39,261 bases of DNA from Bacillales bacterium (GCA_016282415.1 JAEEKO010000073.1:1-39261), one strand, 5' to 3'; positions 6,740 through 30,161 are shown, counted from the first letter of the stretch. The notes: generated from the letters alone by a model not told the origin. Numbers and translations are program-made.

Positions 6740-7477
6740 ATGTATATCGAGTTAATCATTATATTAAACTATCTTTTTGATTTTATCTTATTATTTAGTG
6801 TAAATATGGTTTTAAAAAATAATATTTCATTAACTAGATTGAGTATTGGGGCCTTATCAGGAATCTTAACAATACCATTTATTTTTTTAAAAATACCTTA
6901 TTATATAACCATTGTTATTCGATTGTTATATGGTTTAGTTATGGTTATTGTTACTTTTAAATATAAGAATATTATTTATACAATTAAGAACTTGTTGTAT
7001 TTATATATGATTTCTACCATTATTGGTGGCTTTTTATACTATTTAAGCATCGAAATTAGTTATCAGGTATTCTTAATCGTTTTAGTACCTTTTTATCTTT
7101 ATTTGGTTTATTTTATGATTAAAAAAGAAGAACGTATACGATCTTATTCTTATAATGTTAAAGTAGCAATAAATAATAATGAAATTGCTTTAAAAGGTTA
7201 TTTAGATACTGGTAATGCGGTTAAAGATTATTTATTAAATAATAAAGTTATCATTGTTTCCAATGATGTTATTAGTAAATATTTAAATAATAATATTTTT
7301 TATTACTTAAATATTAAAACGGTCAGTGGTGAAGAGTTACTACGGTGTTATAAGGTTAATAAAGTAGAGATTAATAATAAAGTAATTAATAAATGTGTTG
7401 TGGGAGTTTCATCTCATTTTGACCATAATACCTTTGATGTATTAATACCATATTACTTAGAGGAGGATATATGTTAA
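6740..7477 (+). CDS. spoIIGA: Pro-sigmaE processing aspartic peptidase
   Basis: N-terminal YIE..IILNYLFDFILL, several TMs, catalytic GYLDTGN; overlaps sigE start. Confidence 0.9.
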   Translation: MYIELIIILNYLFDFILLFSVNMVLKNNISLTRLSIGALSGILTIPFIFLKIPYYITIVIRLLYGLVMVIVTFKYKNIIYTIKNLLYLYMISTIIGGFLYYLSIEISYQVFLIVLVPFYLYLVYFMIKKEERIRSYSYNVKVAINNNEIALKGYLDTGNAVKDYLLNNKVIIVSNDVISKYLNNNIFYYLNIKTVSGEELLRCYKVNKVEINNKVINKCVVGVSSHFDHNTFDVLIPYYLEEDIC

Positions 7478-8151
7478 GAAGATTAATTAATTATTTAAGA
7501 AGATTATTTAATAAATGCTTTTTTGTTGGTGCTACGGACAAATTACCACCACCACTAAGTCGCGATGAAGAATTACAATTATTAATTAAAAGTAAAAGTG
7601 GTGATGAAACTGCTACTAACAAACTGATTGAACATAATTTAAGATTAGTAGTTTACTTATCAAAAAAATATGAGAATACGGGTTATGACATTGAAGATTT
7701 AGTATCAATTGGATCAATTGGATTAATAAAAGGAATTAGTACTTATAAAATTGATAAGAATATTAAACTGGCGACTTATTGTTCAAGATGTATCAGTAAT
7801 GAAATCTTAATGTTTTTAAGAAAAAATAAGAATAAACGGGTTGAAGTTAGTTTAGAAGATGCACTGAATTATGATAGTGACGGAAATGAATTACATTTAG
7901 AAGATGTTTTGGGTAGTGACGAAAACATCGTTGAAGATGAAATTCTGCATAATTATGAAATTAGTTTATTAAAAAATGAATTATTAAAAATTAAGGGTCG
8001 CGATGGTAAAATAATTCGGATGCGCTATGGAATAAACTGTCCAAAAGAATATACGCAGAAAGAAGTCGCGGAGATTTTAGGAATTAGTCAATCTTATATT
8101 TCAAGAATTGAAAAAAAGATAATCCGATACTTAAAAAACTTGTTAAACTAA
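7471..8151 (+). CDS. sigE: Sporulation sigma factor E
   Basis: Basic pro-sequence, LPPPL, LIEHNLRLVVY, EDLVSIGSIGLIK, KIKLATY-like NIKLATYCSRCI, ISQSYISRIEK. Confidence 0.93.
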   Translation: MLRRLINYLRRLFNKCFFVGATDKLPPPLSRDEELQLLIKSKSGDETATNKLIEHNLRLVVYLSKKYENTGYDIEDLVSIGSIGLIKGISTYKIDKNIKLATYCSRCISNEILMFLRKNKNKRVEVSLEDALNYDSDGNELHLEDVLGSDENIVEDEILHNYEISLLKNELLKIKGRDGKIIRMRYGINCPKEYTQKEVAEILGISQSYISRIEKKIIRYLKNLLN

Positions 8152-9792: not shown

Positions 9793-10566
9793 TTGAACGC
9801 AAAAGTGAATATATGTGGAATTGATACTAATAATTTACCAACCCTTAGTCATGCTAAAACAATTGAATTGTTTCAAAAAATGCATAATGGTGATAAGAGG
9901 GCTCGTGAAGAATTGTTATATGCTAATTTAAAATTAGTATTGTCCATTCTAAAACGTTTTAATAAAGAAAGTTATAATATGGATGATTTATTTCAGCAGG
10001 GGGTTATTGGATTATTAAAAGCAATTGATAATTTTGATTTATCATATAATTTGAAGTTAAGTACTTATGCTGTGCCTTTAATTTTAGGAGAAATTAAACG
10101 TCATACCCGTGATGATTTCTTAGTACGAGTTAGTCGCGGTACCAAAGATTTAGCTTATAAAATTATTAAGTTTCAAGAAGATTATTTAAGTATTCATGGT
10201 ACTTATCCGGATTATGAAATAATTAGTAATGAGTTTGATATTCCAGAATATCGAATTCGTGAAGTGTTAGATAGTTTACAAAAACCCGTGAGTATTAATG
10301 AACCAATCTTTGATGATGGTGGTGATACCATCTACTTAGAGGATCAAATAAAAGATAATAAAGATTATTTAAAAGATAAAGATGGCTTAATTAGTTTAAA
10401 AAAAGCTTTAAGTCATGTTAAAGCTCGTGAAAAGAAGATTTTGTTAGAACGTTATATTTATGGTAAAACACAAGTTGAAATTGCTAATAATTTAGGAATT
10501 AGTCAAGCTCAGGTTTCAAGGTTAGAAAAGGGGGCAATTAAAACTTTAAAAAGAGTCTTAAAATAA
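9793..10566 (+). CDS. sigG: Sporulation sigma factor G
   Basis: KVNICGIDTNNLP N-terminus, DDLFQ.G.IGLLKAIDNFDL, STYAVP, GISQAQVSRLEK; TTG start; precedes ylmC. Confidence 0.93.
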   Translation: MNAKVNICGIDTNNLPTLSHAKTIELFQKMHNGDKRAREELLYANLKLVLSILKRFNKESYNMDDLFQQGVIGLLKAIDNFDLSYNLKLSTYAVPLILGEIKRHTRDDFLVRVSRGTKDLAYKIIKFQEDYLSIHGTYPDYEIISNEFDIPEYRIREVLDSLQKPVSINEPIFDDGGDTIYLEDQIKDNKDYLKDKDGLISLKKALSHVKAREKKILLERYIYGKTQVEIANNLGISQAQVSRLEKGAIKTLKRVLK

Positions 10567-16605: not shown

Positions 16606-18942
16606 ATGAAGTTAGTTATTAATTTATTTGAAAAATTATTTGCAAATGAATATTTTGGTATTATTTTATTCTGTATTATTGCGGTTTTAGTTCTTTTGTT
16701 TATAATTACATTATTCTTTGGATTAACTGATACTAAAGAAAAAGATGAAATTAAAAAACAAAAACCAGAAGAGGATAAAGATTTATTCTTTAAGATTGAT
16801 GATAACATAAAATTAGATGTTCCAAAGATGGAAGCTGAATTAAAACCAGGTAAAGGTGCTGAACTTGCTCGTAGTGCTGGTGCTAGTATGGTTAAGAATA
16901 AAAGAGGTTTCACTTTAGTTGAATTATTAGTGGTAATAATAGTACTTGCTATTTTTGCGTTGCTAGCTATACCAAGAGTTATTAAAGTTGTAAATCGTGC
17001 ACGCGTTGGATCGTTTGTAGTCGAAGCCAATAGTGTTATTAAAACCGCTAAGAACGCTTACGGTGATAGTGTTTTGTCTGGTGATGAAGAGGGACCAGTA
17101 TATTGTTATACCGTAGATGAATTGATTCGAAGAGGATTATTAAATGCCGAGATTGGTGAAATTAGTGGTGTTATCGTTTTAGATATGACAGATGTTAGTG
17201 ATACGGAAGATGCTAAATTATTTGCATATATATCTAAAGATGGTTTTTATGCTAGAAAAGTTAATGGAAAATTACATACTACCATTAAGAATGATGATGT
17301 AGTTATATATGATGGTAATTCATTATTTAAAGATTGTACAGCAAGTTGTGACGCTACTGCTAATGGTACTTCAATTCGTTGCGGTGGTAGTGAAATAACA
17401 GTACGACCAAACGGATCAAGTTCACCGATTATTACTCCAGAAGAGCCGGATGAAATATGTGATCTTGAAACTACTGAATTTGAATTTGATTACACTGGAT
17501 CAATTCAATCCTTTAAAGCTCCATGTAAAGGTGCATATCAATTGGAAGTTTGGGGCGCTCAAGGTGGAAAATGTCGTAGTACTAACGGTGGTAAGGGCGG
17601 TTATGCCGTAGGTAGTGTGGTTTTAAATAAAGACCAAATGGTTTATATTGGTGTTGGTGGACAAGCTGTTCAATTTAACGGTGGTGGCCGTGGAACGGCG
17701 GGAACATCTAACCCTAATGGTGGTCGTGGTCAAAATGGTGTTAATGGTGGTGGCGCTACTCACATGGCTTTAGTTAGTGGTGAGTTAGCAACTATTGGAT
17801 ATACCGAATTTGTTGATAATAATAAAGGATTGATTGTTGCCGGTGGCGGCGGCGGTTCTGGTGGACAAGTTGGATGGGAAGATGATGGTTCTTCTGCACA
17901 AAACATTAGACCTGGTGGTTACGGCGGCGGTCTTAATGGAGGAAGTTCTTCTGGTGGATCTTGTAATGGTGTTGGTGGAACCCAAAGTGGTTCAAGCACT
18001 AATTCATGTCGTGGTGGTGCTGGATTTGGTGTCGGCGGTACTCAAGGTGCCGGTGGCGGCGGCGGCTTCTATGGTGGTGGCGGCGGCTACTTCGGTGCTG
18101 GCGGTGGCGGTTCAAGCTGGATTGGTGGAGTTATTAATGGCTCTACTACAGCAAACCAACAAACCGGAAATGGTAAAGCCAAAATAACTTATATTGGAGC
18201 TGCGGAAAGTATTAATAATACTTGTTTAGCAGTAAATGAATCAGTTACTTTTGAATATACTGGAACTATGCAGGAATTCACCGCAGTATGTCCTGGGCGT
18301 TACAAACTTGAGGGTTGGGGTGCTCAAGGTGGTAAAAATGGTGGTAAAGGTGGTTATGCTGCTGGTATAGCAACGCTAGCTGCTGATGCAAAAATATATA
18401 TTGGTGTTGGTGAAAGACCAACATACACTACTGGTGGTTATAACGGTGGTGGCGCTGGTGGTGGCGATGGTGCCGGTGGTGGCGGTGCTACTCATTTTGC
18501 TAGAACTAGATCAATCTTAAAAAATACAGCTATTGAAAATATTTATTTAATTGCTGCTGGTGGTGGCGGTGGAATGAATGCTTGGAACGGATACTCTTGT
18601 ACTGGTGGCTATGGTGGCGGTGTTGCCGGTGGAAGAGGCCAAGCGAACGACGGAAATGCAAATACTGTTCAAAATAATGGTGGTGAAGGTGCTACTCAAG
18701 TTACTGGTGCTAAATATGGTTTAGGTGGTAATGGTGACTTGTTGTATCACTCAACTAGACACTCTGGCGGTGGTGGCGGTGGCTACTACGGCGGATACGG
18801 AGGTCAACCGGTTGATAATTATCGTGCAGTTGCTGCCGGAGGCGGTGGATCAAGCTGGATTGGTGGAGTTACTGATCCTGAAACAACAGCTGATTCTCGT
18901 ACCGGACATGGCTTTGCAAAAATCACTTATTTAGGTACTTAA
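16606..18942 (+). CDS. Type IV pilin-domain protein with N-terminal TM extension and two tandem ALK/LTK-like glycine-rich domains
   Basis: KNKRG|FTLVE at residues 97-106; twice YxLExWGAQGG...GGGATH...GGGGG...GGGSSWIGGV...AKITY. Confidence 0.85.
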   Translation: MKLVINLFEKLFANEYFGIILFCIIAVLVLLFIITLFFGLTDTKEKDEIKKQKPEEDKDLFFKIDDNIKLDVPKMEAELKPGKGAELARSAGASMVKNKRGFTLVELLVVIIVLAIFALLAIPRVIKVVNRARVGSFVVEANSVIKTAKNAYGDSVLSGDEEGPVYCYTVDELIRRGLLNAEIGEISGVIVLDMTDVSDTEDAKLFAYISKDGFYARKVNGKLHTTIKNDDVVIYDGNSLFKDCTASCDATANGTSIRCGGSEITVRPNGSSSPIITPEEPDEICDLETTEFEFDYTGSIQSFKAPCKGAYQLEVWGAQGGKCRSTNGGKGGYAVGSVVLNKDQMVYIGVGGQAVQFNGGGRGTAGTSNPNGGRGQNGVNGGGATHMALVSGELATIGYTEFVDNNKGLIVAGGGGGSGGQVGWEDDGSSAQNIRPGGYGGGLNGGSSSGGSCNGVGGTQSGSSTNSCRGGAGFGVGGTQGAGGGGGFYGGGGGYFGAGGGGSSWIGGVINGSTTANQQTGNGKAKITYIGAAESINNTCLAVNESVTFEYTGTMQEFTAVCPGRYKLEGWGAQGGKNGGKGGYAAGIATLAADAKIYIGVGERPTYTTGGYNGGGAGGGDGAGGGGATHFARTRSILKNTAIENIYLIAAGGGGGMNAWNGYSCTGGYGGGVAGGRGQANDGNANTVQNNGGEGATQVTGAKYGLGGNGDLLYHSTRHSGGGGGGYYGGYGGQPVDNYRAVAAGGGGSSWIGGVTDPETTADSRTGHGFAKITYLGT

Positions 18943-18947
18943 TTGAT

Positions 18948-18974
18948 AAAAACTACTAGGAATAGTAGTTTTTT
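18948..18974 (+). terminator. Intrinsic terminator
   Basis: AAAAACTACTA-GGAA-TAGTAGTTTTT. Confidence 0.85.
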
Positions 18975-18976
18975 AA

Positions 18977-19005
18977 TTGCAAAAAATGAAATAATATTTT
19001 ATACT
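18977..19005 (+). promoter_or_regulatory. sigmaA promoter of the giant pilin gene
   Basis: TTGCAA-N17-TATACT. Confidence 0.65.
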
Positions 19006-19027
19006 TAAAGAGTAGGATAGTGATAAT

Positions 19028-22000
19028 ATGATAAAGAAAAGAAATGGTTTTACTTTAGTTGAATTACTTGCAACAATAGTTATTTTAGGAATATTGGTAT
19101 TAATTGCAATACCAGCTTATAATGTTATTTCAAATAACGTTAAGAAAAGACAAAATGAAAATAAGATTAGTTATATTGAAACTCAGGCAGCTAAGTATGT
19201 TGCGGAAAGTGGTTTATATAGTGATATCGATGAAACATCAATTACTGTTCAAACGTTACTTCAAAATGGATACTTAGATGGTGATAATAAAATTGGTGAT
19301 AAAGTCGAAGATGTTTATGGAAAAGATATCACTTGTTATCAAATTAAGATTAGTTTTGAAAAAGGAAAACCAGTCCCAGAATTTATTGATAAAAATGTAT
19401 TAAATCAAGATGGAGTTTGTATCGTTAATGACTTATTCTCTGGAAATATATTAGAGCTTGATGCTTATAAGATTAATCAATTAAATGATAATAATAAAAT
19501 TGAAATCAGAAACCATCGTACCGTATGGGTTGATAATGATGTCGTATTAAAACTAAAAATTAATGATGCTGAATTAAACTCAAAACGTGACCAAGCAATT
19601 ATCAGTATTGATTGGAATGCTGTTAATAACAACAAAAGTTATTCACAATCAAATGACAATTGGTATACTACTGGTTGGTTAGATAATATTGCTAGTTATA
19701 ATGGAAGTACTGAATATAAAAACGTATATACCGTTTCAACTAGTAAGATAATGGCTGATACGAAGTTTAAAATTTCATTAGTAGTTAATTATTTAGATGA
19801 TCATGGTAAAAAAATTAATGAAACTTTAACAACTTATTTAATTGTAAGAATTGATAAAGAAAATCCAACGGTAACCGCAACTGCTGATACTAACTGGACA
19901 AAAGGAAATAAGAAAATCTTTATCACTGGTAACGATAAACAAGGTTCAGGAATTAATCATTTCTGTATCTTTACTAGTAACACTTCTAATCATACATGTA
20001 ATCAAGGCGATGCAAGTTATGTTCCATTAATAAATGCTAATAGTAATAAAGGAGAAGTTACTAAAGCTAAAGGAACATATTATGTATGGGCAGTAGATAA
20101 TGTTGGAAATTATTCAGTCGATGGGGCAAGAGTAGTTGTTGATAATATTGATACAACTAAACCAACATGTGTTTATGAAAACCAAAACACAACATGGAAA
20201 AAAGGAAGTCAAGTTATTACCGTAAAATGTAGTGATGATACTAATGGTTCAGGATGTATTACTAAACCATATAATGTAACTTTTGCGGATAATACATATA
20301 ATAGTGCTAACTTACCATCATCATATATCATTACTGATTATGCTGGAAATAAAACAACATGTTCTGGACCAGTAAATGTATATATCGATAATAATGCTCC
20401 ATCAATTAATACTTTAACTCATAAGGAAGGTGTTACTACTATCAAAGTAAGTGATACTGGAGAATTAAGTAAATATGAAATTATAAATAGTAGTAGTAGT
20501 GTTATTAAAACAGTTACTTTAAGTGGAAAATCTTCAGAAACAACTTATAACAGTGTTGCAGCTGGAACATATACGTTAAAGGTATATGATAAAGCAGGAA
20601 ATACAACTAGTAAGAATTTTACAATTCCATCATTCAAAGTAACATTTGCATTAAAGACTTCAGGAAGCGGAAGCTTCTCATCAACAAGTCAAAATGTTAA
20701 TTATGGAGCTAACGCAACTTCAACATTAACAATTAATGGTGGATATAGTTATGGTAGCGTTTCTGGAACGGGATGTACGGTTAGTGGAAGCACAGTTACT
20801 GCTTCTAATGTAACTGCTGCGGTAACATGTACGGTAACTTTAAATCCAATCAAATATACGGTTACATATCAAACAAATAATAACGCTTGTTCAAACGGAA
20901 GTAGTGGTAATCCAACTGAATACTATGTAACAACTGATACCTTTACTTTAAAGAATCCAACATGTACTGGATATACCTTTAACGGATGGACGGGAGCTAA
21001 TGGAACGACCGCATCAACTTCAGTAAGTGTTGCTAAAGGATCAACTGGAAATAAAACATTTAAAGCTAATTGGACAATTAATAATTATTATTTAGACTTA
21101 AATGGTGTTCTTGATGGAACGACATCAGGAAATATTGCAGGATTCGGAACTGCCGACGTTTATATTAATGGTACATTAAAGGCGGATGATGTTACTGATT
21201 ATTATGTTCAATGGCCATATGGAACAAGTTATGAAATTAAAGGTATCAAAACTGCTACTGGACATGTATATAGTGGAAATACATCATATAGTGGAAAGAT
21301 TGGTGCTGGTAATGTTGGTATTGGCTTACCATTTAGTACTAAAAAAGTAACTGTAACGTTTAAGTCAAACGGTCCTGGAACCGCCGACAAAACCCAAACC
21401 TTTACATATGGTGCTTCTGGAAATCAATTTAATTCAGCATTCTCATGGACTGGTTATACTCAACAAGGATGGTCAGAAAGTAATACTGGTTCTGCGGTAT
21501 ATAGTACAGCTAGTGGTGTATCTGATGGATGGATTGATGGTAAATCTCCTTCAGTAACTTTATATGCAATATGGAAAAAGAATTGCGATAATCAAACTAT
21601 TATTAATAATGCTAATGGAAATGATTATGAATTCCATGGATTATGGTCTTCTAATAAAGAAACTGATCTTGGAACAATGGATACAAGTAAGTATGGTAGT
21701 GTTACTATTAAATATAAATTAACTAAATTTGATAGTTATACGGGTACTGGTAATTCTTGTAATCCAGGCCGAAACTTATACTTAAAAGTAGGTAATCAAC
21801 AAGTTTCATTAGCTGGTACAATTAAATTGATTGATGATGGCGATTGTCCTAATCAAACATATAATTATACATTAGGTGTTGCTGGTTATTGTAATGCTAA
21901 TGGTAACAATTGTGATAGTGGATGTAATGTAACGCCACGTACAAGTAGTCCTAATTGTTATGCTGGTCATGGAAACGATTACAACTGGGGCCAAATAACT

Positions 22001-22120
22001 TATACATTTAATAATATAACTAGTAACGGTTCTCAAACGGTTAAATTAAGAGCTGAATCATCTTATTTCTTAGATGATATAGATGTTAAAGTTTATAATG
22101 TAACATTCAATTGTCGATAA
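19028..22120 (+). CDS. 1030-aa prepilin-motif adhesin with Ig-like and InlB B-repeat-like domains
   Basis: KKRNG|FTLVE; TVQTLLQNGYL; D..xP linkers with D.xGN; TLKNPTCTGYTFNGWT, VTLYAIWK; Cys-rich C-terminus. Confidence 0.85.
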   Translation: MIKKRNGFTLVELLATIVILGILVLIAIPAYNVISNNVKKRQNENKISYIETQAAKYVAESGLYSDIDETSITVQTLLQNGYLDGDNKIGDKVEDVYGKDITCYQIKISFEKGKPVPEFIDKNVLNQDGVCIVNDLFSGNILELDAYKINQLNDNNKIEIRNHRTVWVDNDVVLKLKINDAELNSKRDQAIISIDWNAVNNNKSYSQSNDNWYTTGWLDNIASYNGSTEYKNVYTVSTSKIMADTKFKISLVVNYLDDHGKKINETLTTYLIVRIDKENPTVTATADTNWTKGNKKIFITGNDKQGSGINHFCIFTSNTSNHTCNQGDASYVPLINANSNKGEVTKAKGTYYVWAVDNVGNYSVDGARVVVDNIDTTKPTCVYENQNTTWKKGSQVITVKCSDDTNGSGCITKPYNVTFADNTYNSANLPSSYIITDYAGNKTTCSGPVNVYIDNNAPSINTLTHKEGVTTIKVSDTGELSKYEIINSSSSVIKTVTLSGKSSETTYNSVAAGTYTLKVYDKAGNTTSKNFTIPSFKVTFALKTSGSGSFSSTSQNVNYGANATSTLTINGGYSYGSVSGTGCTVSGSTVTASNVTAAVTCTVTLNPIKYTVTYQTNNNACSNGSSGNPTEYYVTTDTFTLKNPTCTGYTFNGWTGANGTTASTSVSVAKGSTGNKTFKANWTINNYYLDLNGVLDGTTSGNIAGFGTADVYINGTLKADDVTDYYVQWPYGTSYEIKGIKTATGHVYSGNTSYSGKIGAGNVGIGLPFSTKKVTVTFKSNGPGTADKTQTFTYGASGNQFNSAFSWTGYTQQGWSESNTGSAVYSTASGVSDGWIDGKSPSVTLYAIWKKNCDNQTIINNANGNDYEFHGLWSSNKETDLGTMDTSKYGSVTIKYKLTKFDSYTGTGNSCNPGRNLYLKVGNQQVSLAGTIKLIDDGDCPNQTYNYTLGVAGYCNANGNNCDSGCNVTPRTSSPNCYAGHGNDYNWGQITYTFNNITSNGSQTVKLRAESSYFLDDIDVKVYNVTFNCR

Positions 22121-22122
22121 TC

Positions 22123-22154
22123 AAAAGTGTGTATTAAAAAATACACACTTTTTT
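22123..22154 (+). terminator. Intrinsic terminator
   Basis: AAAAGTGTGTATT...AATACACACTTTT plus T-run. Confidence 0.85.
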
Positions 22155-22231
22155 AATACTTTTACTGACAAAAAGTGTCAAATTTTTGCTTTTTTTCTAG
22201 GAGTTATGTTATAATTTTAATGGTGAATAAA

Positions 22232-24136
22232 ATGGCAAAATATGATGAATCATCAATTAAGATATTGGAAGGACTTGAGGCAGTAAGAAAAAGACCTGGT
22301 ATGTATATCGGTTCTACCGATAAAAGAGGCCTTCATCATTTAATTTGGGAAATTGTCGATAATTCAATTGATGAAGTTATTAATGGTTATGGTAATTATA
22401 TTAAAATTAGTTTAAATAAAGACGGTAGTGTTACAGTTGCCGACTCTGGCCGTGGGGTTCCAATCGGAATGCATGAATCGGGTAAACCAACTCCAGAAGT
22501 TATTTATACGGTATTACATGCCGGTGGTAAATTCGAAGAAGGAAACTATAAAGTTTCTGGTGGTTTGCATGGTGTTGGTGGATCAGTAGTTAATGCTTTA
22601 AGTAAAAAAATGGATGTAACGATTTATCGTGAAGGCGTTATCAGTAATATTCGCTTCTGTGATGGTGGTAAAGTTGAAAGCCCTCTTAAAACGATTGGCA
22701 AAAGTAATAAGACTGGAACAACAGTAACATTCTTACCAGATCCAGAAATATTTAAAGTAACTAACTTTTCATACACAACTATTTGTGAAAGAATGCAAGA
22801 AAGTGCTTTTTTACTTTCTGGTTTAACTATTGATGTAATTGATGAAATTGATGGACGTTCTTCATCATTCCATTATGATAATGGTTTAGTTAACTTTGTT
22901 GAATATATTAATGAAGGTAAAAAAGCCTTGCATCAAGTATTATCATTTAGTGGTTTAAAACAAGGTATTGAAGTTGATATTGCAATGCAATACCAAGAAG
23001 GTTATAACGAAAATATTGTATCATTTGTTAACAACGTTAAAACTAGTGATGGTGGTAGCCATGAAGTTGGCTTTAAAACTGGTTTAACAAAAGCTTTCAA
23101 TGATTATGCTAAAAATAATAATTTATTAAAAGCTAAAGATGGTACTTTCGATGGTAGTGATGTTCGTGAAGGTTTAACCGCAATTATTAATTTACGTATT
23201 CCGGAAAATTTACTTCAATTTGAAGGACAAACTAAAGGTAAATTAGGAACTCCGGAAGCAAGAAGTATTACTGAAAGTATTGTTTATGAAAATATTAAAT
23301 TCTTTTTAGAAGAAAATAAAGAAATTGCTTTATCGGTAGTTGGTAAAGCTTCTAAATCAAAACTTGCACGTGAAGCAGCAAGAAAGGCAAGAGAAGCAGC
23401 AAGACAAGGAAAAGGTAAAGATAAAAAAGAGCATATTTTATCTGGTAAACTTGCTAAAGCTACTGGAAAAGATACAAATAAAATGGAATTATTCTTAGTT
23501 GAGGGTGATTCTGCCGGTGGTTCAGCTAAGACTGGACGTAACCGCGAAACCCAAGCCATTTTACCATTACGTGGTAAAGTATTAAATTGTGAAAAAGCCT
23601 CTGCTAATGATATTAATGCTAATGAAGAATTAAATACTTTAACTTATGCGATTGGCGCTGGTATTGGAGCAGAATTTAATCCTGAAGATAGTAATTATGG
23701 TAAAGTAATCATTATGACCGATGCCGATGATGATGGTGCTCATATTCAAATCTTGTTATTAACATTCTTCTATCGCTTTATGCGACCATTAATTGAAGCC
23801 GGAATGCTTTATATTGCTAATCCCCCTTTATATGCTTTAGATTTTGGTAAATATAAAGAATATGTTGCTACAGATGAAGATTTAGAAAAACGTAAAAAAG
23901 AAATTAAAGGAACATATAAAGTACAACGTTTCAAAGGTTTAGGTGAAATGGATGCTGAAGAATTATATGAAACAACTATGAATCCTGAAACCCGTAGTTT
24001 AATTAAAGTAAGTATCACTGATGCTGCTTTAGCTGAAAAACGTGTATCGGTTTTAATGGGTGATAAAGTTGAACCACGTAAAGAGTGGATTGAAGAAAAC
24101 GTTGACTTTAATACAGTAGATAATTTTAGGAGGTAA
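22232..24136 (+). CDS. parE: DNA topoisomerase IV subunit B
   Basis: LEAVRKRPGMYIGS, VEGDSAGG, PLRGK, MTDADDDG, MGDKVEPRKEWIE; GSHEVGFKT..T.AFNDYA; near yneF. Confidence 0.92.
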   Translation: MAKYDESSIKILEGLEAVRKRPGMYIGSTDKRGLHHLIWEIVDNSIDEVINGYGNYIKISLNKDGSVTVADSGRGVPIGMHESGKPTPEVIYTVLHAGGKFEEGNYKVSGGLHGVGGSVVNALSKKMDVTIYREGVISNIRFCDGGKVESPLKTIGKSNKTGTTVTFLPDPEIFKVTNFSYTTICERMQESAFLLSGLTIDVIDEIDGRSSSFHYDNGLVNFVEYINEGKKALHQVLSFSGLKQGIEVDIAMQYQEGYNENIVSFVNNVKTSDGGSHEVGFKTGLTKAFNDYAKNNNLLKAKDGTFDGSDVREGLTAIINLRIPENLLQFEGQTKGKLGTPEARSITESIVYENIKFFLEENKEIALSVVGKASKSKLAREAARKAREAARQGKGKDKKEHILSGKLAKATGKDTNKMELFLVEGDSAGGSAKTGRNRETQAILPLRGKVLNCEKASANDINANEELNTLTYAIGAGIGAEFNPEDSNYGKVIIMTDADDDGAHIQILLLTFFYRFMRPLIEAGMLYIANPPLYALDFGKYKEYVATDEDLEKRKKEIKGTYKVQRFKGLGEMDAEELYETTMNPETRSLIKVSITDAALAEKRVSVLMGDKVEPRKEWIEENVDFNTVDNFRR

Positions 24137-24141
24137 TTATA

Positions 24142-26658
24142 ATGGCAAAAAAAGAAACTAAGACAATTATTGAAAAAATATATGATTACACTCTTGAAGA
24201 TATCATGGGCGATCGTTTTGGTAGATACTCAAAAAGTATTATTCAAGATCGTGCCTTACCTGATGTTCGTGATGGTTTAAAACCAGTTCAAAGAAGAATT
24301 TTATATACTATGTGGGAAAATAAAAATACCTTTGATAAACCTTACCGTAAATGTGCTAAAGCGGTAGGAGATGTTATGGGTAAATATCATCCACATGGTG
24401 ATTCATCAATTTATGGGGCTATGATTTATATGTCTCAAAATTGGAAAATGCGTGAATTATTTATTGATATTCATGGTAATAATGGATCAATTGATGGTGA
24501 TGGACCAGCAGCTTATCGTTATACTGAAACAAGATTAACAAAGTTAGCTAATGTTATGTTAAAAGATATCGATCATGATGCTGTTGAAATGACTTTGAAC
24601 TATTCGGATGAAGATTTAGAACCAACTGTATTACCAGCTAATTTTCCCAACCTTTTAGTTAATGGTTCAACCGGAATTAGTGCTGGTTATGCAACCAATA
24701 TTCCACCACATAATTTAGAGGAAGTTATTGATGCAACAATTCATCGTATTGATAATCCTAATTGTCGTTTAGATACCATTTTAAATATTATTAAAGGACC
24801 AGATTTTCCTACTGGTGGTGTTGTTTTAGGACGCGCTGGTTTGATTCAAGCATATGAAACTGGTCGTGGCAAAATTACCGTTCGTGCTAAAACGGAAATT
24901 GTTAAAGAAAAAGGAAAAAATCAAATTATTATTCATGAAATTCCTTATGATGTCTTAAAAGAAGGATTACGTAAGAAAATTGAAGATATTAAGATTGATA
25001 AAAAAGTTGAAGGTATCCAAGATGTTCGTGATGAATCTGATAAAGCGCATTTAGCAAAGATTGTAATTGATTTAAAGAAAGAAGCAAATAGTGAGTTAAT
25101 ATTAAACTATTTATTAAAAAATACCGATTTACAAGTTAATTATAACTTTAACGTTGTTGCAATTTGTGATCGTCGCCCTAAACAATTAGGATTACTTGCA
25201 ATTTTAGATGCATTTATTGAACATCAAAAGAATGTTACATTACGTAAAACTAAATATCATTTAGATCATGCGTTAGAACGTTTAGAGATTGTTAATGGTT
25301 TATTAAAAGCAGTTGATATCTTAGATGAAATTATTAAAACTATTCGTAAGAGTTTAAATCGTAGTGATTCAATTAAAAACTTAATTGATAAATTTGAATT
25401 TACGGAACGTCAAGCAACTGCTATTGTTGATATGAAATTGTATCGCTTAAGTAATACGGATGTTGAACAATTAAAAGCTGAATTTGATAATTTAAATCGT
25501 ACAATTGAATTATTAAAGACTATTTTAAATGATGAAAATATCTTAAAGAAACAAATGAAAGCGGAATTAAGTGAAGTTAAAAAAGAATATAAATCACCAA
25601 GAAGAACAGAAATTAGTGATTTAAATGAAGATATTAAGCTTGATATGACTGAAATGATACCAAAAGAAAATGTTATGGTTTTTGTATCTAATGAAGGTTA
25701 TGTAAAACGTGTTTCAATAAAATCTTGTCAAGCTAATGAAGGTGAAGAAACTACACTTAAACCTGGTGATTTTATTATTGGTAAATATAACTGTAACACG
25801 CTTGATAAGTTATTATTATTTACTAATATGGGTAATTATTTATTTGTTCCAGTTCATGAAATATTTGAAGCTAAATATAAAGATTTAGGAAAACACATAA
25901 GTAATTTAATTTCATTGAGTCCAGATGAAAAAATTATTGGATCAATGATGTATCGTGATTCTAAAGAAAACTTAATTTTTGTTACGAAGTTAGGTATGAT
26001 TAAACGTGTTACTTTAAATGAATTTATGGTAAGTCGTTATTCTAAACCAATAACTTGTATGAAGTTAAAAGCTGATGATGAATTATTAAGTGTAACGGAA
26101 GATTTAGGTAATGTTTTATTAGTTAGTCATAATGGTTATTACTTACACTATAGCAGTAATGAAGTACCTATTGTTGGTAAAGTAGCTAGTGGGGTTAAAG
26201 GTATTAGTTTAAAAGATGATTATGTTGTAGCTGGTTTAACTTATAATGATAGTGATGAATACTTAAATATTGTTACGGATAAGAAAACAGCAAAACGTAT
26301 TAAACTTAGTGATTTAGATTTAATGAATCGTGCTAAACGTGGTGGTACATTAATCAAAAAAGTTAAATCTAATCCATATAATGTTTTAAATGCCTTTGTT
26401 ACTAAAACTCATGATATTTTATGTATTAAGTGTGTTAGTGAAATTGATGAAATTAAGAATAGTGATATTCCAATTATGGATTTAACTTCAACGGGATCAA
26501 CTATTTCTAAATATGATGTTGATTTAGCATTTATTAAAGCTAATGAGTATGTTTTTAAAAGCGATGATAAAAACGTTGTTGTTGAAGAAGAAGTAAAAGA
26601 AGAAGATGCCGTTGTTAATTTAACAATCGATGATTTCATTGATGATTTTAAATTATAG
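24142..26658 (+). CDS. parC: DNA topoisomerase IV subunit A
   Basis: LEDIMGDRFGRYSKSIIQDRALPD (ParC-type N-terminus), YHPHGDSS, AAYRYTE; no GyrA box seen. Confidence 0.93.
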   Translation: MAKKETKTIIEKIYDYTLEDIMGDRFGRYSKSIIQDRALPDVRDGLKPVQRRILYTMWENKNTFDKPYRKCAKAVGDVMGKYHPHGDSSIYGAMIYMSQNWKMRELFIDIHGNNGSIDGDGPAAYRYTETRLTKLANVMLKDIDHDAVEMTLNYSDEDLEPTVLPANFPNLLVNGSTGISAGYATNIPPHNLEEVIDATIHRIDNPNCRLDTILNIIKGPDFPTGGVVLGRAGLIQAYETGRGKITVRAKTEIVKEKGKNQIIIHEIPYDVLKEGLRKKIEDIKIDKKVEGIQDVRDESDKAHLAKIVIDLKKEANSELILNYLLKNTDLQVNYNFNVVAICDRRPKQLGLLAILDAFIEHQKNVTLRKTKYHLDHALERLEIVNGLLKAVDILDEIIKTIRKSLNRSDSIKNLIDKFEFTERQATAIVDMKLYRLSNTDVEQLKAEFDNLNRTIELLKTILNDENILKKQMKAELSEVKKEYKSPRRTEISDLNEDIKLDMTEMIPKENVMVFVSNEGYVKRVSIKSCQANEGEETTLKPGDFIIGKYNCNTLDKLLLFTNMGNYLFVPVHEIFEAKYKDLGKHISNLISLSPDEKIIGSMMYRDSKENLIFVTKLGMIKRVTLNEFMVSRYSKPITCMKLKADDELLSVTEDLGNVLLVSHNGYYLHYSSNEVPIVGKVASGVKGISLKDDYVVAGLTYNDSDEYLNIVTDKKTAKRIKLSDLDLMNRAKRGGTLIKKVKSNPYNVLNAFVTKTHDILCIKCVSEIDEIKNSDIPIMDLTSTGSTISKYDVDLAFIKANEYVFKSDDKNVVVEEEVKEEDAVVNLTIDDFIDDFKL

Positions 26659-26667
26659 GTAATTATT

Positions 26668-26704
26668 AAATCACTTACTAATATAATATAGTAGGTGATT
26701 TTTT
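26668..26704 (+). terminator. parC terminator hairpin containing the ylbD RBS
   Basis: AAATCACTTACTA/TAGTAGGTGATTT 13-bp stem, AATATAAT at loop. Confidence 0.7.
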
Positions 26705-27061
26705 ATGGATAAAAAAGCAGAATTTAAGAAATTTGCTAGTGCCCATCCGGAATTAAATAAAGCTGTTAACAAAAAACAAGTTACATGGCAAGAGTTATAT
26801 CAGACATATGATATTTATGGTGCCGATTCTAATGTATGGGATGAATATTTAAAAAATGATGGTGTTGATATTAATCGGATTAAAGATTCTTTAAAAAATA
26901 TTGATTATGATAAATTACAAGAATCAATTACTAATGCTAAAAAAGCTTTAGGGGTAATTGGAACATTGATTGGTATGAAAACTACTGATGTTGCTAATAA
27001 TATTAATAATCCAGTAAACGCGAGTAAAGCCAGTAACATAAATAGTGTGTTTGAGGATTAA
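26705..27061 (+). CDS. ylbD: YlbD-like spore coat protein
   Basis: EFKKF...HPEL...V.....TWQELY..Y..YG....VW. Confidence 0.8.
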   Translation: MDKKAEFKKFASAHPELNKAVNKKQVTWQELYQTYDIYGADSNVWDEYLKNDGVDINRIKDSLKNIDYDKLQESITNAKKALGVIGTLIGMKTTDVANNINNPVNASKASNINSVFED

Positions 27062-27062
27062 T

Positions 27063-27278
27063 ATGGCACCATCAGTATTAATGGAATTAAAGCAAAATCC
27101 AAAATATTATAATTATTTATTATTAAATAGTAATTATTTAAAAGTTCTTAATCGTTATGGCTTTAAATTGTATAAAAAAATAATTGATGAACAATATCAT
27201 CTTACTGGTATGGATCGCGTTAACAAATTGGTAGATAAAGTAACGTTTATTAACAATGTTATAGAAAGTGTAAAGTAG
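27063..27278 (+). CDS. ylbE: YlbE-like protein
   Basis: Size, position after ylbD, Y.K.LNR motif. Confidence 0.6.
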   Translation: MAPSVLMELKQNPKYYNYLLLNSNYLKVLNRYGFKLYKKIIDEQYHLTGMDRVNKLVDKVTFINNVIESVK

Positions 27279-27346
27279 TTAATATTTATTGTATTTTATC
27301 AAAAATTTGTTATAATAAAAGTATGATAGGAAGGGAATAAAGTAGG

Positions 27347-27892
27347 ATGAGAAAGAGATTAAGCAAAAAAGGTTTTACATTAGTTGAATTATTAGCAGTT
27401 ATCGTAGTTCTTGCAATCTTAGTATTACTTGCAATGCCACGTGTTACATCAATGATGGAAAAGAGTAGAGTAAATTCATTTGCAGTTGAAGCAAACGAAA
27501 TTGAAAAACTTGCAGAAACAGCATATAATGACAAAATATTAAATGGTGTTACTGGTCTTGGAACTACGCCATGCTTTACTGTTGATCAATTAATTTCTGA
27601 TGGATATCTTGATAAAGATAAAGGTGAAGTTCAAGGTGTTATCGTATTAGAAATTCCAGATGCAAGTGCTACTGATCAAAGTGTTAAAGCTCATATGTAT
27701 TTATCAAAAGATAAATATTTCATCAAAAATTTAACATCAAAAGCAAAAACTAATAACGTTAGTAAAGGTGCTAATAAAAAATACAGTGCTTGTTCTAGTA
27801 CTACAGCTGCAATTACTTGTACATCAGATGCTGGTGTTACTACTGTAAAATGTATTAACGGTACTACAGAGACAGCTATTCAAGGTTTATAA
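27347..27892 (+). CDS. Type IV major-pilin-like protein 1
   Basis: KKG|FTLVE, hydrophobic helix with P22, TVDQLISDGYL, 4 Cys. Confidence 0.9.
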   Translation: MRKRLSKKGFTLVELLAVIVVLAILVLLAMPRVTSMMEKSRVNSFAVEANEIEKLAETAYNDKILNGVTGLGTTPCFTVDQLISDGYLDKDKGEVQGVIVLEIPDASATDQSVKAHMYLSKDKYFIKNLTSKAKTNNVSKGANKKYSACSSTTAAITCTSDAGVTTVKCINGTTETAIQGL

Positions 27893-27910
27893 TACATAGC
27901 ATTATAAATT

Positions 27911-27946
27911 AGTTAATATAATGGAAATATTATATTAACTTTTTTT
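27911..27946 (+). terminator. Intrinsic terminator
   Basis: AGTTAATATAAT...ATTATATTAACT plus T-run. Confidence 0.8.
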
Positions 27947-28044
27947 ATGCCAATATAATGTTATATAAATGTAAAGTAAATAATATTTGTTGTATTTTAT
28001 TAAAAATTTGTTATAATAAAAGTATGATAGGAGAGGAATAAAAT

Positions 28045-28584
28045 ATGATGGGAAAGAGATTCAATAAAAAAGGTTTTACATTAGTTGAATTATTAGCAGT
28101 TATCGTAGTTCTTGCAATCTTAGTATTACTTGCAATGCCACGTGTTACATCAATGATGGAAAAGAGTAGAGTAAATTCATTTGCGGTTGAAGCCAATGAA
28201 ATTTTAAAAGTTGCTCAAACTGCTTATAATGATCATTTATTAAATGGTACAGATGATGGTACTATGCCTTGTTATACAGTTGATAAATTAATTGCTGATG
28301 GTTATCTAGATAAAGATAAAGGTGAAATTGTTGGTGCAATTGTATTAGAAATTCCTTCTGCAACTGCAACTAATCAAAATGTTATAACTCACATGTATTT
28401 ATCAAAAGGTGACTATTACATGAAAAATGTAATAACTAAAGCTAAAAGTTCTAATGTTGTAAAACTTTCAAATTTATATAGTGCTTGTACTGGTTCTGGT
28501 ACTGTTACTTGTACAGCTTCTGGAACAAATGCTGCTACAGTTAAATGTGGATCAACAACAATTAGTTCTTTACCAACTACATAG
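28045..28584 (+). CDS. Type IV major-pilin-like protein 2
   Basis: KKG|FTLVE; N-terminal helix identical to 27347 gene; 4 Cys. Confidence 0.9.
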   Translation: MMGKRFNKKGFTLVELLAVIVVLAILVLLAMPRVTSMMEKSRVNSFAVEANEILKVAQTAYNDHLLNGTDDGTMPCYTVDKLIADGYLDKDKGEIVGAIVLEIPSATATNQNVITHMYLSKGDYYMKNVITKAKSSNVVKLSNLYSACTGSGTVTCTASGTNAATVKCGSTTISSLPTT

Positions 28585-28597
28585 GATTAAGAATATT

Positions 28598-28627
28598 AAA
28601 AAGAAGTTATTGTTAACTTCTTTTTTT
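28598..28627 (+). terminator. Intrinsic terminator
   Basis: AAAAAGAAGTTA-TTGT-TAACTTCTTTTT. Confidence 0.8.
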
Positions 28628-28689
28628 GTGACATTGATTTAAGAATAAAAAAATGCTATTATAAATAATAGAGAATGATAGGTGATAAC

Positions 28690-30102
28690 ATGAATAAAAA
28701 GGGTTTTACATTAGTTGAATTATTAGCAGTTATTGTGGTTTTAGCGATTCTTGCGCTTTTAGCTATTCCGCGTGTTATTTCGATTATGGAAAAATCTCGT
28801 GTTAGTGCTTTTACGGTTGAAGCTAATGAAATTATTAAATCTGCTCAAAATGCTTATGGTAGTAAAGTTTTGTCAGAGGAAGAAATGAATCATCCGGTGT
28901 GCTTTACGATCGACCAATTAATTAAAGGTGGTTATTTAGATAAAGATAAAGATGATGTTAAGGGTGTTATTGTTATTGATTTAATTCATGGTAGCGATAT
29001 TGCTGATACTAATGAAGTTATTTATACTTATTTATCTAAAACGGATTTTTATATTAGAAAAAATGACGGTATTAAAAACAAGGTTGTAAATTCAGATGTC
29101 GTTAAAAGTAAAGGTGCGGCTATTTATAGTGACTGTACAACTACATGTACCGCAACTGATGGGGGAGTATCAGTTAAGTGTGGTGATACGGAAATTACTG
29201 GTATCGTTTCTAGTCCGGTAGAAGAAGCTTGTGATTACGAACGTAATCATGAATGGATTTTTAGTTATAAAGGTAGTATTGATGAATTTGAAGTACCTTG
29301 TGGGGGTTATTATAAATTAGAAGTATGGGGAGCTCAGGGTGGTTCTTATAGTGATACTTACCATGGCGGTTATGGTGGTTATGCTGTTGGTAGTATCCAT
29401 TTAACTAATACTGATAAACTTTATGTTGGTGTTGGTGGCAGAGGAACCCATGTTGGAAACTTTGTTACTGGTGATGGTGGTTATAATGGTGGTGGTGCTG
29501 TTACTGGTTCATGGTCGGATCAAAATGAACGTCGTTCAACTGGTGGTGGTGCAACACATATTGCTTTAAATAATAATTTAGGAGAATTAAAGCATTATTC
29601 TGATCATCAAAGTGATGTTTTAATTGTTGCTGGTGGTGGCGGTGGTGGTCATGCTAATCAAGTAATGATCACTAGTAGTTATTATACTGGCGGATTTGGT
29701 GTTGGTGGTTCGGGTGGTGGAACTACTGGCGGTATGGCTTTAGGTCAACAATATGATGATCCAGTAACGGCACGTGGTGGTTGGCAAGAACAAACACCAA
29801 GTGAAACTCGTGGTAGTTTTGGTCAGGGCGGTCAAGCTCAAATAGGAGAAACTAATTATGGTATTTATGATGGTGCCGGTGCAGGTTGGTATGGTGGTGA
29901 GCGTAGTTGGCGTGCTTCCGGCGGTGGATCAGGGCATTTATCAACTAGTTTAATCAATGGTCATATGTCATGCTTTAATTGTATGGAAACTGAAGATAGT
30001 GTAACTACTAATGTTAATAGTGCAAATGCTACTGCAACTTCTGGGGTTCCTAAAAAAGATGATGGATATGCAAAAATCACTTATTTAGGTGGCCATTTGT
30101 AA
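28690..30102 (+). CDS. Type IV pilin fused to one ALK/LTK-like glycine-rich domain
   Basis: MNKKG|FTLVE; YKLEVWGAQGG, GGGATH, LIVAGGGGGG, GYAKITYLG; promoter TTGATT-N17-TATTAT 28634-28662. Confidence 0.88.
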   Translation: MNKKGFTLVELLAVIVVLAILALLAIPRVISIMEKSRVSAFTVEANEIIKSAQNAYGSKVLSEEEMNHPVCFTIDQLIKGGYLDKDKDDVKGVIVIDLIHGSDIADTNEVIYTYLSKTDFYIRKNDGIKNKVVNSDVVKSKGAAIYSDCTTTCTATDGGVSVKCGDTEITGIVSSPVEEACDYERNHEWIFSYKGSIDEFEVPCGGYYKLEVWGAQGGSYSDTYHGGYGGYAVGSIHLTNTDKLYVGVGGRGTHVGNFVTGDGGYNGGGAVTGSWSDQNERRSTGGGATHIALNNNLGELKHYSDHQSDVLIVAGGGGGGHANQVMITSSYYTGGFGVGGSGGGTTGGMALGQQYDDPVTARGGWQEQTPSETRGSFGQGGQAQIGETNYGIYDGAGAGWYGGERSWRASGGGSGHLSTSLINGHMSCFNCMETEDSVTTNVNSANATATSGVPKKDDGYAKITYLGGHL

Positions 30103-30161
30103 AAATTCAAGTTAACTTGAATTTTTTTTTGGTTTTCTTTATAATTGAATTGGTGATAGCG

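Follow-up and report, generated by a model that had tools for sequence, protein, structure and literature searches.

The DNA described here is a 39,261-nucleotide stretch from a Bacillales bacterium (GCA_016282415.1, JAEEKO010000073.1:1-39261), hereafter called the window. Its region 16606..30102 contains five prepilin genes, all on the plus strand and all placed as the preliminary description had read them, around parE (22175-24136) and parC (24142-26658). These two genes, which together occupy 22175..26658 (+) between pilin genes 2 and 3, are context and conserved anchors of the locus; they are 95.9% and 88.8% identical to their orthologues in G001, a genome of the same genus. All five pilin genes encode a class III signal peptide (KKG/FTLVELL..., the slash marking the predicted cleavage site), and both PF07963 and TIGR02532 score above cut-off in all five in Pfam and NCBIfam profile searches.

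Pilin 1 (16888..18942, +; 684 amino acids; 30.8 bits with PF07963) has the leader MVKNKRG/FTLVE and a major-type head, followed by two glycine-rich domains (GRDs) that motif positions place at ~17476-18195 and ~18241-18933 (+). Pilin 2 (19028..22120, +; 1030 amino acids; 29.6 bits) has a different N-terminus, KKRNG/FTLVE, and a long repeat-rich body; it matches PF09479 (27.5 bits) and the Listeria-Bacteroides repeat TIGR02543 (44.6 bits), and a paralogous pilin of 1186 amino acids is encoded on contig C61 (E 3e-58). Pilin 3 (27347..27892, +; 181 amino acids) and pilin 4 (28045..28584, +; 179 amino acids) are short and are candidate major pilins. Pilin 5 (28675..30102, +; 475 amino acids; 31.3 bits) has the same head, a short Ser/Pro linker and one GRD (~29260-30099, +). 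The observation of five prepilin genes, two of which carry GRDs, is confirmed.

The 5' end of pilin 1 needs some comment. Its open reading frame extends from 16606 to 18942 (+), with a strong Shine-Dalgarno site upstream of 16606, and the first 94 codons (16606..16887, +) are the remnant of a separate gene for a small protein with a single transmembrane segment. This remnant is 60% and 48% identical to stand-alone open reading frames of 106 and 156 amino acids, which lie directly 5' of parE in the same-genus genomes G001 and G002. Just 5' of the pilin ATG, 16837..16887 (+) is an exact 51-nt copy of rplB from the same genome (blastn, 100% over 51 nt against C52:9026-9076), and in a contig from run X2 the match to pilin 1 starts only at 16879, the 167 letters upstream being unlike. 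The true start is most likely the ATG at 16888 and not 16606. Genes 1 and 2 make up an insertion of about 5.3 kb, which both G001 and G002 lack and whose junction contains filler DNA.

It had also been proposed that most of the genes have their own promoter and terminator. For the terminators this is borne out by RNA folding of the intergenic stretches, which places an AT-rich hairpin and a T-run 3' of all five pilin genes; for example, at approximately 18948..18976 (+) after pilin 1 (folding of 18943-19027, -12.8 kcal/mol), 22123..22152 (+) after pilin 2 (22121-22174, -13.9 kcal/mol) and 30103..30131 (+) after pilin 5 (30103-30160). A consensus scan, in contrast, gave no more than chance numbers, with 89 promoters against 92.8 expected and 5 terminators against 5.5 expected; the terminator scan, which requires three G-C pairs, missed the hairpin of pilin 1. 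The element TTGTAT-16-TGTTATAAT before pilins 3 and 4 provides candidate -10 boxes, which were recognized by eye only and are absent from the output of the consensus scan.

Four of the pilin heads can be aligned with each other. They are 41-49% identical to the first and share the motif noticed earlier, with C, T, D, L, G..L, G.IV and Y.SK invariant, and both the head alignment and an N-terminal comparison agree with the view that the GRD genes encode heads of the major-pilin type. For example, mature residues 1-53 are the same at 50 of 53 positions between pilins 3 and 4, which are 71.6% identical overall, and at 40-41 of 53 between pilin 5 and these two. A tandem duplication (27266..28248, +) with a period of 701 nt covers, for both pilin 3 and pilin 4, the promoter region, the 5' leader and the N-terminal part of the coding sequence, the copies 27266-27547 and 27967-28248 being 90% identical. 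Two tandem short pilins are found at the same chromosomal place in G001, so that the pair lies between parC/orf118 and nfo in both that genome and the present one (G000). The locus pilins of the two genomes are 42-45% identical, whereas the flanking Nfo, ParC and ParE are 80-96% identical, and exposed shaft subunits would be expected to diverge in this way. The N-terminal part of PilE1 of S. sanguinis (8pfb, 3.7e-10) is matched by a profile built from 50 homologues.

The glycine-rich domains, likened in the preliminary description to those of ALK and LTK, belong to PF12810. An HMM search found this family (gathering cut-off 24.5 bits) in two of the five genes, as two stretches in pilin 1 (135.9 bits) and one in pilin 5 (108 bits, residues 211-471), with E values of 2.9e-39 and 1e-30; PF07963 and PF12810 are the only Pfam families found in the GRD pilins. 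The two GRDs of pilin 1 are 52% identical to each other. In the head alignment the GRD sets in about 12 residues past the last residue of pilins 3 and 4, and these proteins are modular pilins in the sense that an independent Pfam family follows the short-pilin head. Profile A1, built from 50 homologues, matches solved GRDs in the PDB (7lir, 4.2e-13; 7n00, 3.4e-8; 7nx0, 2.8e-5), in an alignment that takes in the F.vP..G.Y...GA.GG start, the GGGAT motif and the later Gly runs; a single pilin sequence searched alone against the PDB did not match a solved GRD. On this sequence evidence, the GRDs of pilins 1 and 5 are homologues of the GRD through which ALK, LTK and SCD-2 bind their ligands (PDB 7N00, 7NX0, 7LIR), with which they share a Pfam family at well above the gathering score. 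For the whole protein, a pilin head fold joined to a polyglycine-II bundle is predicted. The ESM Atlas model of one homologue, P0055, has a mean pLDDT of 0.83, its comparison being only with other Atlas models.

Membership of the ALK/LTK receptor family itself was considered and rejected, as the TNF-like, EGF, transmembrane and kinase combination of that family is not found and only the one domain is common to both. Unlike the receptors, these proteins lack MAM, LDLa, TNF-like, EGF and kinase parts; their GRD is carried by a pilin, and an ALKAL cytokine cannot be what it binds. Reviews (PMC13243192; bioRxiv review) list this GRD only from ALK and LTK; the other polyglycine bundles that they name, in antifreeze proteins, Obg, a carboxylase and phage gp38, are unrelated.

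The idea that these domains combine a conserved scaffold with divergent loops holds for a set of 166 GRDs, in which conservation of the Gly runs reaches at least 90% and the intervening segments vary in both sequence and length. At short range loop hypervariability is not evident, because between close homologues the GRD (71-73% identity) has diverged less than the pilin head (only 56-62%). Most bacterial copies of the GRD have an added Cys-rich C-terminal hairpin (consensus MYCYNC...).

A sequence link to gp38 of phage S16 had been suggested and did not survive, since no gp38 chain was retrieved from the PDB at E<=1 with either a single protein or the profile; the likeness to gp38 (PDB 6F45) is one of description only, namely a Gly-rich PPII bundle with variable loops (PMC13243192; bioRxiv review). 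A link to the tail fibers of C. difficile phages is better supported. The phiCD418 tail-fiber module includes a 247-amino-acid protein with PF12810 (111.6 bits); over 106 residues it shares 39% identity with the GRD of pilin 5. PtsHN10M, from the PtsM/RtbM receptor-binding proteins of C. difficile prophages and diffocins, is the one phage protein of this domain family that has binding data, and it binds SlpA; in the available part of that paper (PMC9615553), PtsM is described as having a conserved N-terminal GRD and a diverse C-terminal region thought to set specificity, and its authors guess that the GRD attaches to the baseplate and not to the receptor. Going by that part of the paper, the GRD is thus not established as a binding surface anywhere in prokaryotes. 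The resemblance to PtsM, a Pfam glycine-rich domain on a cell-surface recognition protein, follows only the wording of the paper, and unlike in PtsM the GRD of the pilins is C-terminal and outermost.

Related modules occur elsewhere in the genome and beyond it. Contig C29 encodes a second, different pilin-like protein (G/FVFVE) with a C-terminal GRD (PF12810, 104 bits), which is kept together with its neighbor in G001 and so shows synteny across the genus, and contig C30 encodes a pilin with a lectin module (Laminin_G_3). Among the matches listed, 18 longer proteins cover at least 79% of the pilin head; eight of these carry PF12810, four Laminin_G_3 plus List_Bact, one List_Bact alone and five a module with no known family. 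In a tree all of the longer pilin-head proteins cluster together at 100/100 support, the G001 pilins excepted. Fusions of a pilin to a GRD occur commonly in metagenomes of gut Bacilli. Gut-metagenome contigs from three other studies contain GRD pilin genes at 95-100% identity, parts of pilin 5 being covered at this level, and Gly_rich_2-pilin fusions are also present in Saccharibacteria. In ESM Atlas clusters the partners of the GRD are fimbrillin-like, Ig-like and lectin parts. Like the membrane-anchored GRD proteins of this genome and of G002 and the phage tail-fiber module, these partners are of a surface type. The literature searched yielded no description of a pilin-borne PF12810 or GRD module.

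No assembly genes lie in the window, as had been noted, and matches to T2SSE, T2SSF and A24 are absent from its contig. Type IV machinery is encoded elsewhere in the genome by one GspE/PilB-type ATPase, one PilC-type platform and one A24 peptidase. Contig C66 has PilB (T2SSE, PF00437, 408.1 bits), PilC (PF00482, 171.9 bits) and PilD (PF06750, A24_N_bact, 101.3 bits; PF01478, Peptidase_A24, 37.2 bits). The monoderm type IVa set of the S. sanguinis/Clostridia type is incomplete with respect to PilM and PilT, neither of which was found above cut-off: the best PilM_2 match has 19.8 bits against a cut-off of 27, and pilT_fam matches only the three known T2SSE genes, all below cut-off. The genome is 85.5% complete, however, and the absence of these two genes is therefore unproven. 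All ComG equivalogs are below cut-off as well (ComGA, 267.8 of 300; ComGB, 152 of 240; ComGC, 28.7-35.7 of 75), and there is no single comG operon, the pilin genes being dispersed in the genome and spread singly among housekeeping genes. Pilin-like genes number at least 13 in the genome, and no fewer than seven of these are modular, so that a repertoire of five is correct for the window and too small for the genome. Three findings had been named beforehand that would speak against the interpretation, namely no GRD-like fold, no type IV assembly machinery in the genome or an architecture already characterized; with the PF12810 identity and the assembly genes in hand, two of the three do not refute it.

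We think it rather probable that the genes in the window encode part of the subunit repertoire of a single type IV filament in a wall-bearing gut bacterium of the Bacilli with a reduced genome (0.9 Mb), in which pilins 3 and 4 would form the shaft and pilins 1 and 5 would bear GRD adhesins. PilD would cleave the prepilins between G and F, and PilB together with PilC would assemble the shaft mainly from pilins 3 and 4. The bulky pilins 1 and 5 (475-684 amino acids) would join the same filament either at the tip or sparsely along the shaft, with the GRD held outward on a short linker. The Gly runs would presumably serve as a rigid scaffold and the variable connecting loops would bind a protein or glycan on an external host or microbial surface. 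The GRDs are probably swappable adhesive heads, and the GRD may be one of several such interchangeable heads on this pilin, others being a ConA-type lectin and a 220-amino-acid module without a known family; in this way a small genome would obtain a changeable set of adhesins. The first interpretation of the locus is partly supported.

The modular pilins described by Raynaud et al. (2021, PMC8179133) are similar in that a functional module is placed on a pilin in a monoderm host; in S. sanguinis, PilB has a vWA module and PilC a lectin module. The tandem short pilins 3 and 4 resemble the PilE1/PilE2 arrangement of that species, and its lectin pilin PilC has a counterpart here on contig C30. 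The present system differs from the one in the available part of that paper in that the carrier head is the head of the presumed major pilins and not of a separate minor-pilin type, that the pilin genes are dispersed with no single pil locus, and that PilM and PilT are below cut-off. The text of the survey, in the part available, names the 15 commonest architectures, and PF12810 is absent from them (PMC8179133). The design can be called uncharacterized only with respect to its adhesin module, which would be new; the plan of a module on a pilin was already established.

Other explanations must be weighed against this one. The prepilin N-terminus might be no more than an export signal and an anchor in the membrane or in a short pseudopilus, giving surface display without a long pilus or any GRD-decorated filament, much like the archaeal bindosome or the pseudopili of type II secretion. 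We regard this as unlikely, even though the same modules do follow plain N-terminal membrane anchors (GRD proteins on contig C35 of this genome and in G002), 92 of the best 150 representatives have a GRD and no prepilin motif, and the minimal machinery and scattered pilin genes would suit it. Pilins 1 and 5 keep a full head and a short-pilin-like helix, which a mere anchor does not need, other routes to the surface exist in the form of two sortases and signal-anchor proteins, and the tandem short pilins keep their chromosomal place, which fits a genuine shaft subunit. Distinctly unlikely, in our view, is a bottle-brush filament, in which the GRD pilins co-polymerize along the shaft with pilins 3 and 4, as their shared head and helix might allow, and are not rare tip subunits. 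Such a filament would be studded with rigid polyglycine domains, and reduced-genome gut Bacilli would latch with it onto the microbes or host mucus that they depend on; it would parallel the pilus-dependent episymbiosis of Saccharibacteria.

A competence pilus of the Com type for DNA uptake, with the large pilins as accessory or tip subunits, seems quite improbable. The set of ATPase, platform and peptidase only is Com-like, as is the monoderm host, ComEC is present (118.1 bits), and there are weak matches of ComGC, ComGD and ComGE to pilin N-termini. However, besides the ComG equivalogs falling below cut-off, the ATPase scores higher on the GspE and PilB models, the many large modular pilins go beyond a comG set, and pilin 5 has a GRD with an acidic pI of 5.3, in contrast to known DNA-binding pilins. 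That the GRDs are recent captures from phage tail fibers, carried on a mobile insertion and with no settled cellular role, we find hardly credible. The insertion of genes 1 and 2 described above, the tail-fiber module of a C. difficile phage and GRD matches to four PHROG families would fit such an origin. Against it, the window has no phage or mobile-element genes beside the GRD pilins, sampling of the order finds PF12810 in 95 of 201 genomes and in 55 of 98 genera, the synteny of one GRD pilin-like gene extends across the genus and all of the frames are intact.

If the bottle-brush filament were real, prokaryotes would possess, in the bacterial GRD, a relative of the ALK ligand-binding domain whose natural function is binding. 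If the favored reading, a shaft of short pilins with GRD pilins as adhesive heads, is true, the glycine-rich domain of ALK and LTK would gain a working context in prokaryotes, as a surface adhesin head on pili, membrane anchors, giant proteins and phage tails. The modular pilin idea would be widened as well, from dedicated minor pilins to copies of a major-pilin head with swappable modules. Finally, attachment would be a large investment of these uncultured, auxotrophic gut Bacilli, and this could guide attempts at co-culture.

Prepilin N-termini are present on five plus-strand open reading frames (ORFs) between 16.6 and 30.1 kb of the window, around parE (22175-24136) and parC (24142-26658), as the preliminary description had reported. 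PF07963 exceeds its Pfam cut-off in all five and the generic NCBIfam domain TIGR02532 is also matched by all five; none of the named NCBIfam pilin equivalogs (GspG, ComGC-GG and PilA) scores above its cut-off in these proteins. The heads of the pilins encoded by genes 1, 3, 4 and 5, i.e., the parts N-terminal to any additional module, are 41-49% identical with gene 1 as the reference. Four cysteines and the motif residues on which a common pilin type had been proposed for these four genes are invariant in the alignment, and so this grouping stands. Two of the five pilins also have a glycine-rich domain (GRD, PF12810; cut-off 24.5 bits), namely pilin 1 (135.9 bits, in two stretches) and pilin 5 (108 bits, residues 211-471). 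Pilins 3 and 4 are short and end about 12 residues before the position at which the GRD starts in pilin 5, and likewise the first of the two GRDs in pilin 1. The pilin/GRD feature of the window is real and had been recognized correctly.

The GRD was predicted to resemble the ligand-binding domain of the ALK and LTK receptors, and database comparisons point the same way. As a single sequence, the pilin query retrieves only pilin N-termini from the PDB and no GRD structure. A profile built from 50 homologues matches Caenorhabditis elegans SCD-2 (7lir, 4.2e-13), human ALK (7n00, 3.4e-8) and LTK (7nx0, 2.8e-5), with an alignment that extends from the start motif through GGGAT to the later glycine runs; its N-terminal part also matches Streptococcus sanguinis PilE1 (8pfb, 3.7e-10). 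Together with the Pfam scores, these matches argue for an ALK/LTK-like domain in both pilins at the level of sequence. A sequence link to gp38 of phage S16 was not found: neither the single sequence nor the profile matched it at E<=1 in the PDB searches.

The suggestion that the GRDs combine a conserved scaffold with divergent loops is correct over long distances. Among 166 GRDs, which were cut from 120 homologues and the window, conservation is at least 90% in the glycine runs and at a few aromatic positions, and the intervening segments differ in both sequence and length; the three GRDs in the window are 42-52% identical to each other. Hypervariability of the loops was not seen at short range: in the closest homologues the GRD is 71-73% identical versus 56-62% for the pilin head. 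A search for repeats that might indicate recombination or diversity generation found only glycine-codon runs, the common 5' ends of the pilin genes and the pilin 3/4 duplication. Within pilin 1, contigs from other samples have an extra in-frame TGG (one more glycine) after position 18467 and, in its second GRD, +1/-1 differences that come in pairs around 18735-18749; these differences are either variation in the length of glycine runs or errors.

In ORF 1, the first 94 codons resemble stand-alone small transmembrane (TM) proteins of two genomes in the same genus, G001 (60% identity) and G002 (48%), and nucleotides 16837-16887 exactly repeat 51 nt of the genome's own rplB gene (C52:9026-9076). 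This filler separates the pilin start from the remnant of the small membrane-protein gene, and a single open frame of 778 codons is kept throughout. A matching contig from another sample aligns with the pilin only from 16879 onward and is unlike the window upstream. In addition, the leaders of the 50 homologues with a prepilin motif have 4-23 residues and never about 99. On these grounds we take 16888 as the start of pilin 1. This strain may truly have the in-frame fusion, or the assembly may be at fault; likewise, the rplB filler is either a true illegitimate-recombination junction or a product of assembly.

Gene order in the two relatives indicates how the locus was built. In G001, a small TM gene is followed by parE, parC, orf116, two tandem short pilins, nfo and a PBP gene, and in G002 parE also comes directly after the small TM gene. 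Therefore, pilins 1 and 2 are an insertion of about 5.3 kb, and pilin 5 was added to a tandem-pilin locus that is itself conserved. Between the genome of the window and G001, ParE, ParC and Nfo are 95.9%, 88.8% and 80.2% identical, respectively, but the tandem pilins only 42-45%. Pilins 3 and 4 form a tandem duplication with a period of 701 nt, in which the upstream region and the 5' end are 90% identical. In relatives, at least four kinds of C-terminal module occur behind the head of pilins 3 and 4; the order in which modules were acquired cannot be read from the pilin-head tree because it is poorly resolved inside the group (9 of its 20 inner branches are open there).

Most of the pilin genes were also thought to have their own promoter and terminator. 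The terminator part is supported by direct folding of the intergenic stretches, which places an AT-rich hairpin and then a T-run 3' of each of the five pilin genes, as well as 3' of parC. A consensus scan of the window for promoters and terminators stayed at chance level, and a TGnTATAAT box 5' of pilins 3 and 4 is a reading by eye. No Rfam family matches the window.

The repertoire extends to other contigs. A motif scan finds 12 prepilin ORFs genome-wide (a thirteenth match, on contig C2, was discarded as internal), and beyond the scan a G|FVFVE protein is encoded on C29. These pilin-like genes occur singly amid housekeeping genes. The head shared by pilins 1, 3, 4 and 5 is joined to Laminin_G_3 and a List_Bact repeat on C30 and to an uncharacterized module on C53, and C61 encodes a 1186-aa pilin with InlB-type repeats that is a paralogue of pilin 2 (E 3e-58). 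On C29, another pilin-like N-terminus precedes a GRD (104 bits), and the synteny of this protein and its pilin neighbor is kept in G001; C35 encodes a membrane-anchored protein with List_Bact and GRD. The C-terminal module of the C53 pilin (C53:7402-8616) seemingly recurs in a 415-aa protein of G002 (L122:2234-3481), where a plain membrane anchor precedes it, as judged by eye from similar C-terminal motifs.

As the preliminary description stated, the window has no ATPase, platform or peptidase gene, and no other type IV assembly machinery gene is present on its contig. Other contigs of the genome (902 kb in 94 contigs, 85.5% complete) have three sets. The one on C66 consists of a PilC-type platform, an A24 prepilin peptidase, the only one found in the genome, and a GspE/PilB-type ATPase. 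A Tad-like set (C12:3359-7127) has a MinD-like ATPase, a TadA-like ATPase and two T2SSF proteins, and a further Tad-like set (C3:2371-6328) has a CpaB-like protein and an ATPase. No PilM_2 or PilT family member exceeds the cut-off in this 85.5% complete genome, and the ComGA, ComGB and ComGC models all score under theirs; ComEC and two sortases are present. By these tests the machine is a minimal PilB/PilC/PilD system and fits neither the canonical Com pilus nor the monoderm type IVa pilus in its canonical form. Although the genome is only 0.9 Mb, the window also encodes SpoIIGA (6740-7477), two sigma factors of the sporulation type (7471-8151 and 9793-10566) and, at 26705-27061, a YlbD coat-like protein.

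Pilins fused to GRDs are common in metagenomes of gut Bacilli. A word-indexed search gave 3345 matches (8000 candidates scored); among the 120 matches listed, PF07963 and PF12810 occur together in 39, according to a precomputed column, and the prepilin motif is found by pattern in 50. When 1.84 billion representatives were searched exhaustively, 14,490 matched at E<=1e-3, of which 2221 reached <=1e-10 and 348 reached <=1e-30. The best 150 representatives, some of which are giants of up to 7235 aa, include 50 with both prepilin and GRD motifs, 92 with only the GRD, five with only the prepilin motif and three with neither. Genome-level counts of PF12810 are lower bounds because the search of this genome missed pilin 1: at least 12 of 24 other genomes of the family have the domain, as do at least 95 of 201 genomes and 55 of 98 genera of the order, versus 0 of 14 control genomes. 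In 79 loci of species-representative genomes there are 102 distinct GRD ORFs, of which 12 have an in-frame prepilin motif; 19 of the remaining 90 end at a locus edge. The relatives' records, from rumen and gut samples, are titled 'Bacilli bacterium', 'uncultured Tenericutes', 'Mycoplasma sp. CAG:776' and 'Firmicutes bacterium CAG:582', genomes that presumably belong to the GTDB order RF39. Pilins 1, 2 and 5 are partly covered, at 95-100% identity, by gut-metagenome contigs from three other studies. Giant surface proteins with many copies of PF12810 each are encoded in some genomes of the order (1.1-1.3 Mb), in open frames of 13,332, 6106, 5862 and 5316 codons (e.g., G100:C2:132467-177895).

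The case for the function of the GRD pilins is one of association, and companion domains would suggest a role at the surface. ESM Atlas clusters near one homologue (P0055) combine PF12810 with pilin signals (88, 84 and 66 members), and its other partners there are fimbrillin-like Mfa domains (Bacteroidota), Ig-like domains and lectins; in Saccharimonadota clusters, pilin signals occur with a different glycine-rich family. A 247-aa protein of the Clostridioides difficile phage phiCD418 (L114:5983-6726) matches PF12810 at 111.6 bits (E 8.1e-32), and its gene, part of the tail-fibre module, follows the baseplate J and tail-collar-fibre genes and precedes the endolysin gene. It is annotated as 'hypothetical protein' and, in two related phages, only as 'glycine rich protein'. 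The GRDs are also matched by four PHROG families of unknown function. The C. difficile receptor-binding protein PtsHN10M, which binds SlpA, is described as having a conserved N-terminal Pfam glycine-rich domain, to which its authors, in the sections consulted, do not assign receptor binding (PMC9615553).

Reviews of polyproline-II bundles list antifreeze proteins, Obg, a carboxylase, gp38, ALK and LTK but none from a bacterial surface, and the only mention of PF12810 in the literature searched concerns a fungus. That literature gave no description of a bacterial pilin-GRD protein. The window GRD pilins have the design of the modular type IV pilins, for which a survey reports more than 1200 proteins in 264 architectures; PF12810 is absent from the architectures named in the main text of that survey, but its Dataset S1 may already list it (PMC8179133). 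The step from a homologous domain on a pilin to a variable adhesin on a pilus is one that we infer. From their sequences, the GRD pilins are best read as a new variant within the modular type IV pilins, in which the GRD would be the adhesive module.
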